Below, piece after piece: positions 43,774 through 46,001 of a stretch of DNA of 64,000 nucleotides. Position 1 is the stretch's first letter, and each line of letters starts with the position of its first letter. The notes beneath the pieces are model-generated. The model ran no database searches and had not been told where the DNA came from. It was given only the letters and a program-made list of their open reading frames with translations. The stretch lies in NCBI RefSeq assembly GCF_056712565.1, contig NZ_CM160072.1; one strand, given 5' to 3'. The position numbers and the translations under genes are program-made.

Positions 43774-45081
43774 ATGGAAAAAACGGCGCTAATACAATTT
43801 ATTACTGAATACATCGCTTCGCGAAGGCAACCCAAAATCGATGCCTTTGAAAAAGAAGCCGCAAAGCGAGTGGAACAGGGCGAGGACGCCAGCGTTATCG
43901 CTCAGGAGCGGCAGGAACTCGAAGCACGCTACTTGCCACGTAACTGGTTAACGGATGCGGCAAAGCGTGCCGGGCAAATCAAATTAGTCACTCATGGCGC
44001 TAAATTCAGTCATGGTGATTCTAAAGCCAGTAGCTTTTATCTGGAAACCTCCGCTAACGAAAGCTATTTAAACACAGCATCGTTGGCGAATGTCGCTACT
44101 GACGCGATTGGTAACGCCGCTGCACTTGACGTAGCAAAGTTGCTACAAACCGATGTGAACGGAGATTCACTGCTTGCCAGCCTGAAGCGTGGTGATTATC
44201 AGGCATTAAGTACGTTTGCAGAGGATAAAGTGCAACTGGAGCTGTGGGTAGCTGGGTTTAGCCAGGCATGGACTACTGGACGGCCTTCCAGCCATAAACT
44301 GGCGAAACAAATCTATTTCCCTGTTGCGGATGGTTATCACCTGTTATGCCCACTGTTTTCCAGTTCACTGGCGCAGGCGATGTATGAAAAGCTAACCGCC
44401 GTGCGCTTTAGTGAGGAGTCGAAAGCCATTCGCGATGCCCGCAAAGCAGGAAAATGGCACTCCCAGCCAGATATCTGGTTTCCTAATCTTGCCGAAATGC
44501 ATTTTGGCGGCACAAAACCGCAGAATATTTCTTTGCTCAATAGTGTGCGGGGTGGCCGTGTCTGGCTGTTGCCGTCAATGCCGCCCACCTGGGCGACGCT
44601 GGATCGCGCGCCACAAAACATGCGCAGTATTTTTTCCCTACGCGGCGATTTCAATCGGGCGGCTTCAGGCATTGTCGCCCAGATGACCTACTTACTGAAG
44701 GTTGACATAAATAATGTCCATATCCGAACTGTGCGGGCGAAATATATTGATGAGTTGATCGATTTGCTGTTCATGCAGGCATCCGCTTTTCAGCAAGAAA
44801 AATGGCAGGGATGGTCCGCACAATCACCAGACTTACCTCGCCACCAACAACTTTGGCTGGACCCGTGGCGAAGCCTCTCAGATGAGACTTTCAAACAGGA
44901 GCGTGAGAAAAACGACTGGCAAGTAACTGTCGCCGATGATTTCGCACGCTGGCTGAACTATCGCCTGAAAAAATCCAGTTTTGACGTAGGCGCTGTCGAA
45001 CAAAAAGAGTGGCGCAGCCAGTCTCTGTTCGCTCAACGGATGCGTGAAATGGAAGCTGTTTTGCAGGAGGCGCTGAAATGA
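43774..45081 (+). CDS. csy1: Cascade large subunit Csy1 (Cas8f)
   Basis: 435 aa; conserved blocks VGNAAALDV, LAKQIYFP, KFGGTKPQNIS, LWLDP shared with Pseudomonas aeruginosa Csy1 as recalled. Confidence 0.9.
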   Translation: MEKTALIQFITEYIASRRQPKIDAFEKEAAKRVEQGEDASVIAQERQELEARYLPRNWLTDAAKRAGQIKLVTHGAKFSHGDSKASSFYLETSANESYLNTASLANVATDAIGNAAALDVAKLLQTDVNGDSLLASLKRGDYQALSTFAEDKVQLELWVAGFSQAWTTGRPSSHKLAKQIYFPVADGYHLLCPLFSSSLAQAMYEKLTAVRFSEESKAIRDARKAGKWHSQPDIWFPNLAEMHFGGTKPQNISLLNSVRGGRVWLLPSMPPTWATLDRAPQNMRSIFSLRGDFNRAASGIVAQMTYLLKVDINNVHIRTVRAKYIDELIDLLFMQASAFQQEKWQGWSAQSPDLPRHQQLWLDPWRSLSDETFKQEREKNDWQVTVADDFARWLNYRLKKSSFDVGAVEQKEWRSQSLFAQRMREMEAVLQEALK

Positions 45082-46001
45082 GTTATCTGCTCTTGTTACC
45101 CCATATACGCATCGAAAACGCTAACGCTGTCTCCGGGTTGACCTGGGGATTCCCGTCGATGACCCATTTTCTCGGTTATGTCCATGCGCTTTCTCGCAAA
45201 GTCGTGGATGAATTTGGCGTAAGTTTTGATGGTTGTGCGGTAGTAAGCCATGAACAGCATATTCAGGCGTACAGCTCTGGGCGCGATTTTTAGTTCGCTC
45301 TCACCCGTAACCCATTAACCAGAGAAGGTAAAACCGCCTCGTTCAATGAAGAGGGCCGCATGCACTTGACGGTTTCTCTACTGATTGAATGTAATGGCGA
45401 AATCACCAATGGTGAATATGGCAGAAAAGTTCTTTGTGACTATCTGAAAATGCTTTGCCAGAGCCACAAACTGGCGGGCGGCAGCATTGTCAGTATGCGC
45501 GATCCGCAGCTTTTTCATGCGCCTGAAGATGAAAAGCAACTGCGTAAAATCGTCTGGCGGTTAATGCCGGGTTATGCGCTTTACGATCGCAGTGAATGGC
45601 TGGCTGAACATCACCAACAACATCCCGACATCTCGTTGCTGGATGCCTGGCTTGATTTCGCCGCGATTAAATATCAGGCCGAATCTCCGGCTGAAGACAA
45701 CAGCGCAAAATGGGTATACCAGCCGAAGCCAATACCTGGTTTCCTGGTACCGTTAATGTGTGGCTACCAACGCATTTCTCCTGTTTACGCACCCGGTGAA
45801 GTTGAAAATGCGCGCGACACCGTGACGCCATTTGCCTTTGCCGAAGCGGTATATGGCATTGGCGAATGGCGCGGATTACATCGCACTACAGACTTGCAAG
45901 CGCTGATGTGGCGTTACCGCACAACGGACACTGGCTACTATTGTTCGGCAACGCCAGTTGTTGATGATTTTACCTTTAATGAATATGACGATTTAGAATA
46001 A
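45078..46001 (+). pseudogene. csy2: Csy2 (Cas5f) interrupted by an in-frame TAG at 45291-45293
   Basis: N-terminal 71 codons (MSYLLLLPHIRIENANAVSGLTWGFPS...) and the downstream 236 codons are in one frame; homology to Cas5f continues straight across the stop ([31 protein letters not shown]). Confidence 0.85.

Follow-up and report, generated by a model that had tools for sequence, protein, structure and literature searches.

A nonsense mutation in csy2 (cas5f), a gene of the type I-F CRISPR-Cas system, was described for Escherichia coli UTI89 by Jiang et al. (2013, PLoS Genet 9:e1003844, PMC3784566), and in Fig. S3A of that paper the codon concerned reads TAG in UTI89 versus CAG in strains ED1a, NRG857C and LF82. 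A spacer of UTI89 matches the resident plasmid pUTI89, which was read as CRISPR inactivation permitting retention of the plasmid; in the experiments of the same study (PMC3784566), survivors carrying a beneficial targeted plasmid were cas loss-of-function mutants. Spacers matching the strain's own plasmids had been reported for UTI89, APEC O1 and S88, together with frequent decay of cas genes across E. coli (Touchon and Rocha, 2010). Here the csy2 gene (45078-46001) of a 64,000-nucleotide stretch of contig NZ_CM160072.1 (assembly GCF_056712565.1) was analyzed, in which an amber codon is found at position 72. This whole stretch is called the window below, and features lie on its plus strand unless stated otherwise.

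The closest described case is the UTI89 allele, with which the window has the gene, the codon, the CAG-to-TAG change and the flanking locus in common; over positions 39059-53400 the two differ at 5 positions. What sets the window apart from UTI89 is that cas6f has a further amber codon (47390-47392), array A has lost three spacers and repeat 1 of array B shows a point change. The I-F loci of E. coli ST80_L1, NGF1 and FDAARGOS_1253, in which csy2 is intact and which stand for the functional type I-F system of such E. coli strains as LF82, ED1a and NRG857C, have the same gene order, the same site between clpA and infA and the same 28-nt repeat, and their csy2 is 99.2-99.8% identical to that of the window. 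They differ in a CAG at codon 72, an unbroken Csy2 of 307 amino acids and other, diverse spacers. A distant orthologue of the same family is the Cas5f/Csy2 of Pseudomonas aeruginosa (PDB 5UZ9, 6B44; 5uz9_B, E = 3e-57, residues 4-293), where the solved Csy complex contains the full-length protein. In RefSeq, csy2 is labelled a pseudogene ('internal stop') in HS13-1, UTI89, APEC E19019 and PA45B, that is, in every strain with TAG that was inspected. The csy2 mutation is annotated in RefSeq and already published, together with the codon from which it arose and what it probably means, and is not new.

The amber codon of csy2

From its ATG (45078) to its TAA (45999-46001) csy2 spans 307 codons plus terminator, and within this span a single in-frame stop was found, the TAG at 45291-45293 (C>T at 45291, from the glutamine codon CAG). 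In the list of open reading frames (ORFs) the gene appears as two pieces in the same frame, 45078-45293 and 45360-46001. The latter encodes 213 amino acids starting at Met95 and may be made by a restart of translation; it is not a separate gene. With glutamine placed at codon 72, the Pfam family Cas_Csy2 covers the translation as one domain (residues 5-288, model positions 1-294 of 296, E = 9.8e-100), and the NCBIfam model TIGR02565 matches it over profile positions 1-295 of 296 with 310.6 bits (cut-off 154.1). A solved Csy2 chain, 9irf_A, aligns end to end with the read-through protein (E = 6.5e-99) and has serine at the position aligned to codon 72. When the pieces were scored separately, the N-terminal fragment of 71 amino acids matched TIGR02565 positions 1-65 with 79.5 bits, below the cut-off, and the C-terminal ORF matched positions 95-295 with 178 bits, above it. 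The translated gene is thus a full-length member of the Cas5f/Csy2 family (TIGR02565 / PF09614) by profile and by its I-F operon context, and it lacks the uninterrupted ORF expected of a functional member. A preliminary description of this DNA had placed both pieces in one frame with the TAG as lone stop between them, had claimed colinear Csy2 homology on its two sides and had named the gene as csy2 cut at codon 72 of about 307. All of this agrees with the translation and with the Pfam, TIGR02565 and solved-chain alignments.

To find the ancestral codon, alignment to intact alleles had been proposed, and csy2 was compared base by base with nine related E. coli loci. Codon 72 is CAG in ST80_L1, NGF1, 82.0312, FDAARGOS_1253 and Rb-50 and CAA in 503440, hence glutamine in all six intact alleles, which are 93-99.8% identical to the allele of the window. 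The closest of them differs at 2 of 924 bases, one of which is the C>T at 45291. The csy2 genes of HS13-1 and UTI89 are identical to that of the window (UTI89 924/924), and that of APEC E19019 is one base off and has the TAG. Each intact allele is a single ORF of 307 amino acids, so that a natural end of full-length Csy2 at this position is refuted.

The spread of the stop was followed with a 61-base query centred on it, for which an exact match was required, in complete E. coli genomes carrying the gene. The query was present in 124 of 237 such genomes, the remainder being at least 1 base different. UTI89, S88, APEC O1, IHE3034 and the type strain are among the genomes with TAG, which come from many laboratories and hosts. 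Since the identical 61-mer recurs in these 124 genomes and a sense codon stands in the intact alleles, the csy2 stop is, judged by sequence comparison, a real, inherited and lineage-wide nonsense mutation. Csy2 has the marks of a pseudogene arisen by nonsense mutation, with a sense codon one base away in relatives and a stop that is heritable.

Eleven complete E. coli chromosomes, among them HS13-1, SF-468 and APEC 16-1068, match the window at 100% over 3.4 kb around csy2. The other 29 among the best 40 matches listed have a bit score of 6276 versus 6281 and are apparently one base off, a difference that was directly confirmed for UTI89 alone; these 29 include UTI89, S88, APEC O1, IHE3034, NU14 and the type strain ATCC 11775. 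According to a 2026 preprint, this group's conserved set of I-F spacers belongs mainly to sequence type 95 (ST95; 145 of 161 genomes).

Operon context and a second amber codon in cas6f

Flanked by clpA and infA, the locus comprises, in this order, array A, cas1f, cas3f, csy1, csy2, csy3, cas6f, tRNA-Ser and array B. Compared with HS13-1, the window has 2 base differences between 38000 and 53400, neither of them in cas1f. Four cas genes are intact and of full length in the window. Both cas1f (39231-40214) and cas3f (40211-43444), a cas2/3 fusion of 1077 amino acids without any UTI89 difference inside, were identified from their ORFs and the RefSeq annotation, for cas1f that of the HS13-1 locus. 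Csy1 (cas8f, 43774-45081; TIGR02564, 415 bits) has a stop codon that overlaps the csy2 start (ATGA), and csy3 (cas7f) follows at 46012-47013 (TIGR02566, 441 bits). A non-coding gap of 329 bp (43445-43773) separates cas3f from csy1; at this point one number is missing from the RefSeq locus tags of several strains, suggestive of a small feature once annotated and since removed.

The cas operon had been described as otherwise intact, which did not hold. In cas6f (csy4, 47024-47578) a second in-frame amber codon is present at codon 123 (47390-47392), the result of a C>T at 47390 relative to the CAG of UTI89, and RefSeq flags this gene as well with an 'internal stop' in HS13-1. The truncated Cas6f ends at residue 122 of 184, with profile positions 1-123 of 184 covered. 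The corresponding 61-mer was found exactly in 11 of 240 genomes. The csy2 lesion is the older and the cas6f lesion the younger of the two, and the pattern looks like progressive decay in an operon that was already inactive.

Lesions of I-F loci are also found outside this lineage. In strain 82.0312, csy2 is intact (CAG) and csy1 has an internal stop; therefore, E. coli I-F loci have been inactivated independently in different lineages.

Spacers, resident plasmids and interference

Array A (38731-39058) consists of 6 repeats of 28 nt, the last of them degenerate, with 5 spacers, and is annotated as CRISPR by RefSeq in HS13-1; array B (48119-48507) has 7 repeats and 6 spacers. The strand of the spacers was fixed by the orientation of the repeats and by the degenerate terminal repeats. 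Type I-F interference requires a CC protospacer adjacent motif (PAM) located 5' of the protospacer on the crRNA-like strand (crRNA, CRISPR RNA). Three of the 11 spacers of the window, A4, A5 and B4, gave 32/32 matches to about 3,300 plasmid records, 2,767 of them conjugative. Spacer A4 (38939-38970) matches conjugative plasmids with a CC PAM, as in pEGY2, where the protospacer is preceded by ...gcgCC. Spacer B4 (TGTGGCGCTGATGCGTCTGGGCGTCTTTGTAC; 48328-48359) is a perfect match to the replication-initiator gene (repA / RepB family) of IncFIB plasmids, likewise with a CC PAM. For spacer A5 (38999-39030) the perfect match is to the antirestriction gene of F-like plasmids, with CT instead of CC beside it; this target, present in the F plasmid and its relatives, may be a PAM escape variant. 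Within the 64-kb window, no self-targets of the 11 spacers were found with up to 6 mismatches.

Array A contains 5 spacers in the window and in HS13-1 versus 8 in UTI89 and PA45B. Three internal spacers are absent, which points to an internal repeat-to-repeat deletion as the probable cause, not to new acquisition. The spacers of array B are the same in all loci of the TAG lineage that were examined, and their arrays differ solely by the loss in array A. In strains with intact csy2 the spacers are unrelated and diverse, and the terminal spacer alone is common with NGF1. The shared spacers of the TAG lineage are consistent with a frozen system, and clonality alone would give the same picture. 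At its start, array B shows two small deviations: the first repeat (within 48119-48179) reads ...GGCAGTTTAGAAA, with T at 48139 versus C in UTI89, and the first spacer is 33 nt long instead of 32.

The csy2 allele was related to plasmid content by spot checks of individual strains. PA45B has the TAG allele and the spacers A4 and B4, and its own plasmid pPA45B holds the CC-flanked B4 protospacer. A plasmid of FDAARGOS_1301, also a TAG strain, shares at 100% identity the 232 bp that contain the B4 target, and plasmids of the TAG strains N21, BCE049 and MS8345 match this region at 95-99.6%. The first 50 kb of a plasmid of HS13-1 belong to an IncHI2 resistance plasmid and are uninformative on protospacers. 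TAG strains keep plasmids that are perfectly targeted and CC-flanked, which an active system would not tolerate, and this supports a loss of function. I-F interference has thus probably been lost in the TAG strains. The loss of interference predicted in the preliminary description is in this indirect way supported, both by the carriage of the CC-flanked B4 target and by the further lesion in cas6f.

As the course of events we propose that a single C-to-T transition would have converted the glutamine codon 72 of csy2 (CAG) to amber in an ancestor of the B2/ST95-type lineage of E. coli, all descendants of which would have inherited the TAG. Translation would stop after 71 of 307 residues and the Cas5f subunit would not be made. 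A type I-F system that lacks Cas5f can form no Csy surveillance complex and so loses crRNA-guided interference. The locus would since have been a decaying remnant, in which the sub-lineage of the window presumably gained its second CAG-to-TAG change in cas6f, the gene of the crRNA-processing nuclease. The knockout of csy2 may have been tolerated or favoured, as the arrays target conjugative plasmids of the IncF (incompatibility group F) type that are habitual in the lineage; this account of plasmid tolerance is the one given for UTI89 by Jiang et al. (2013, PMC3784566).

Several other explanations of the TAG were weighed. Isolated in-frame stops are sometimes errors, and this general prior is all that favours an error in sequencing or assembly of the source genome. 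The same 61-mer stands in 124 complete assemblies that were made independently, by different laboratories, in different years and from different hosts, and the TAG was independently reported in 2013 (Jiang et al., PMC3784566); the assemblies led us to reject an error, which has a practically negligible probability. We regard it as very unlikely that the TAG is read through, by leakiness or by a suppressor tRNA, to give enough full-length Csy2 for a partly active system. The downstream frame is intact, and a published survey (PMC7918605) argues that many bacterial in-frame stops are read through. A supE-type suppressor allele of glnV would insert glutamine and restore the ancestral protein exactly, and as both csy2 and cas6f were hit by CAG>TAG changes, one such suppressor would mend the two genes. 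However, the TAG is limited to a single near-clonal lineage, with CAG or CAA in all other alleles, and so does not behave as a recoding site, which would be conserved across diverged homologues. The sole tRNA gene in the 64-kb window is a tRNA-Ser (GGA; 47689-47776, minus strand) between cas6f and array B, and no suppressor tRNA was found there. SupE (glnV CUA) occurs in 155 of 5,423 E. coli genomes; every one of the 60 carriers listed is a laboratory strain of K-12 type with a genome of 4.5-4.8 Mb, and no TAG strain is among them. The base after the stop is T, reportedly an efficient context for termination in E. coli (Poole et al., 1995). The TAG strains moreover stably hold plasmids with perfect CC-PAM protospacers, and in the window cas6f is interrupted too. 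The preliminary description had reserved the case that the codon is read through; given the clonal stop and the window without a suppressor tRNA, nothing was found in favour of this reservation. Still less probable is a restart at Met95 (ATG 45360), by which pieces of 71 and 213 residues would act as a split Cas5f. A Shine-Dalgarno-like GAGGG is located 4 nt upstream of this ATG, and the C-terminal ORF alone exceeds the TIGR02565 cut-off of 154 with its 178 bits. On the other hand, residues 72-94 are absent from both pieces, and they form the best-conserved block of the first 102, with 19 of 23 residues identical to 9irf_A versus 37 of 71 for residues 1-71. The intact alleles are all single ORFs of 307 amino acids, we know of no relative with a naturally split Csy2, and the co-residence of targeted plasmids speaks against activity here as well.

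Taken as a whole, the best explanation, which we hold with high confidence, is that csy2 is an ordinary nonsense pseudogene of the ST95-type lineage in a decaying I-F locus. It builds on what was seen directly, namely the TAG and the sense codon it came from, the fixation of the change across the lineage, the further lesion in cas6f and the presence of perfectly targeted plasmids in TAG strains. Two observations weigh against it: csy2 is undamaged 3' of the stop in all 124 genomes, and lineages with intact csy2 decay too, as the csy1 stop of 82.0312 indicates, so that loss of I-F may be general in E. coli. The undamaged downstream part carries no weight because the lineage is near-clonal, with 0-1 substitution in 924 bp, and at this level a test of post-stop constraint by the ratio of nonsynonymous to synonymous substitution rates is powerless. 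The other observation bears on the cause of fixation. It is possible, although we think it the less probable course, that the knockout is real and was fixed by drift or by hitch-hiking in a clonal expansion and not by selection for IncF plasmids. The ST95-type strains are nearly clonal at the locus, and E. coli I-F loci with other spacers are lesioned as well (csy1 stop, 82.0312). IHE3034, a TAG strain, is not known to carry a plasmid. Cas decay is frequent in E. coli (Touchon and Rocha, 2010). Against drift, two spacers with a CC PAM match very common conjugative plasmid backbones, the TAG strains hold these targeted plasmids, and cas loss-of-function mutants survive with a beneficial targeted plasmid (PMC3784566).

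Flanking regions and implications for I-F loci of E. coli

Two further features of the window lie far from the cas genes. Positions 1-1352 adjoin ybjL and form the terminal part of a P2-like prophage, with late control protein D and an Ogr/Delta zinc-finger protein. HS13-1 lacks an equivalent of this segment at that site, and SF-468, MS15052, APEC 16-1068 and others have it with 100% identity. The gene ybjP (17105-17619, minus strand) bears a RefSeq frameshift flag in HS13-1, to which the window is identical there; stops occur in every frame of this stretch and none is open throughout.

The two CAG>TAG ambers in csy2 and cas6f could also be imagined as a reversible off-switch, an idea to which we give hardly any credence. 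If it were true, a glutamine-inserting amber suppressor (glnV, phage- or plasmid-borne) would restore both ancestral proteins exactly, one-base reversion being the other restoring route, and I-F would be re-armed, as cas1, cas3, csy1, csy3 and the arrays are still intact.

With csy2 as a nonsense pseudogene, ST95-type E. coli (UTI89, S88, APEC O1, the type strain) would carry an I-F locus that is complete to typing tools and genetically dead. The main value of the finding lies in correct annotation. Where surveys relate the presence of I-F to the plasmids or resistance of strains, codon 72 of csy2 should be scored and, in the sub-lineage of the window, also codon 123 of cas6f. Beyond this, the locus would be a textbook natural case in which CRISPR inactivation permits the carriage of self-targeted conjugative plasmids, a point that was already made in 2013.
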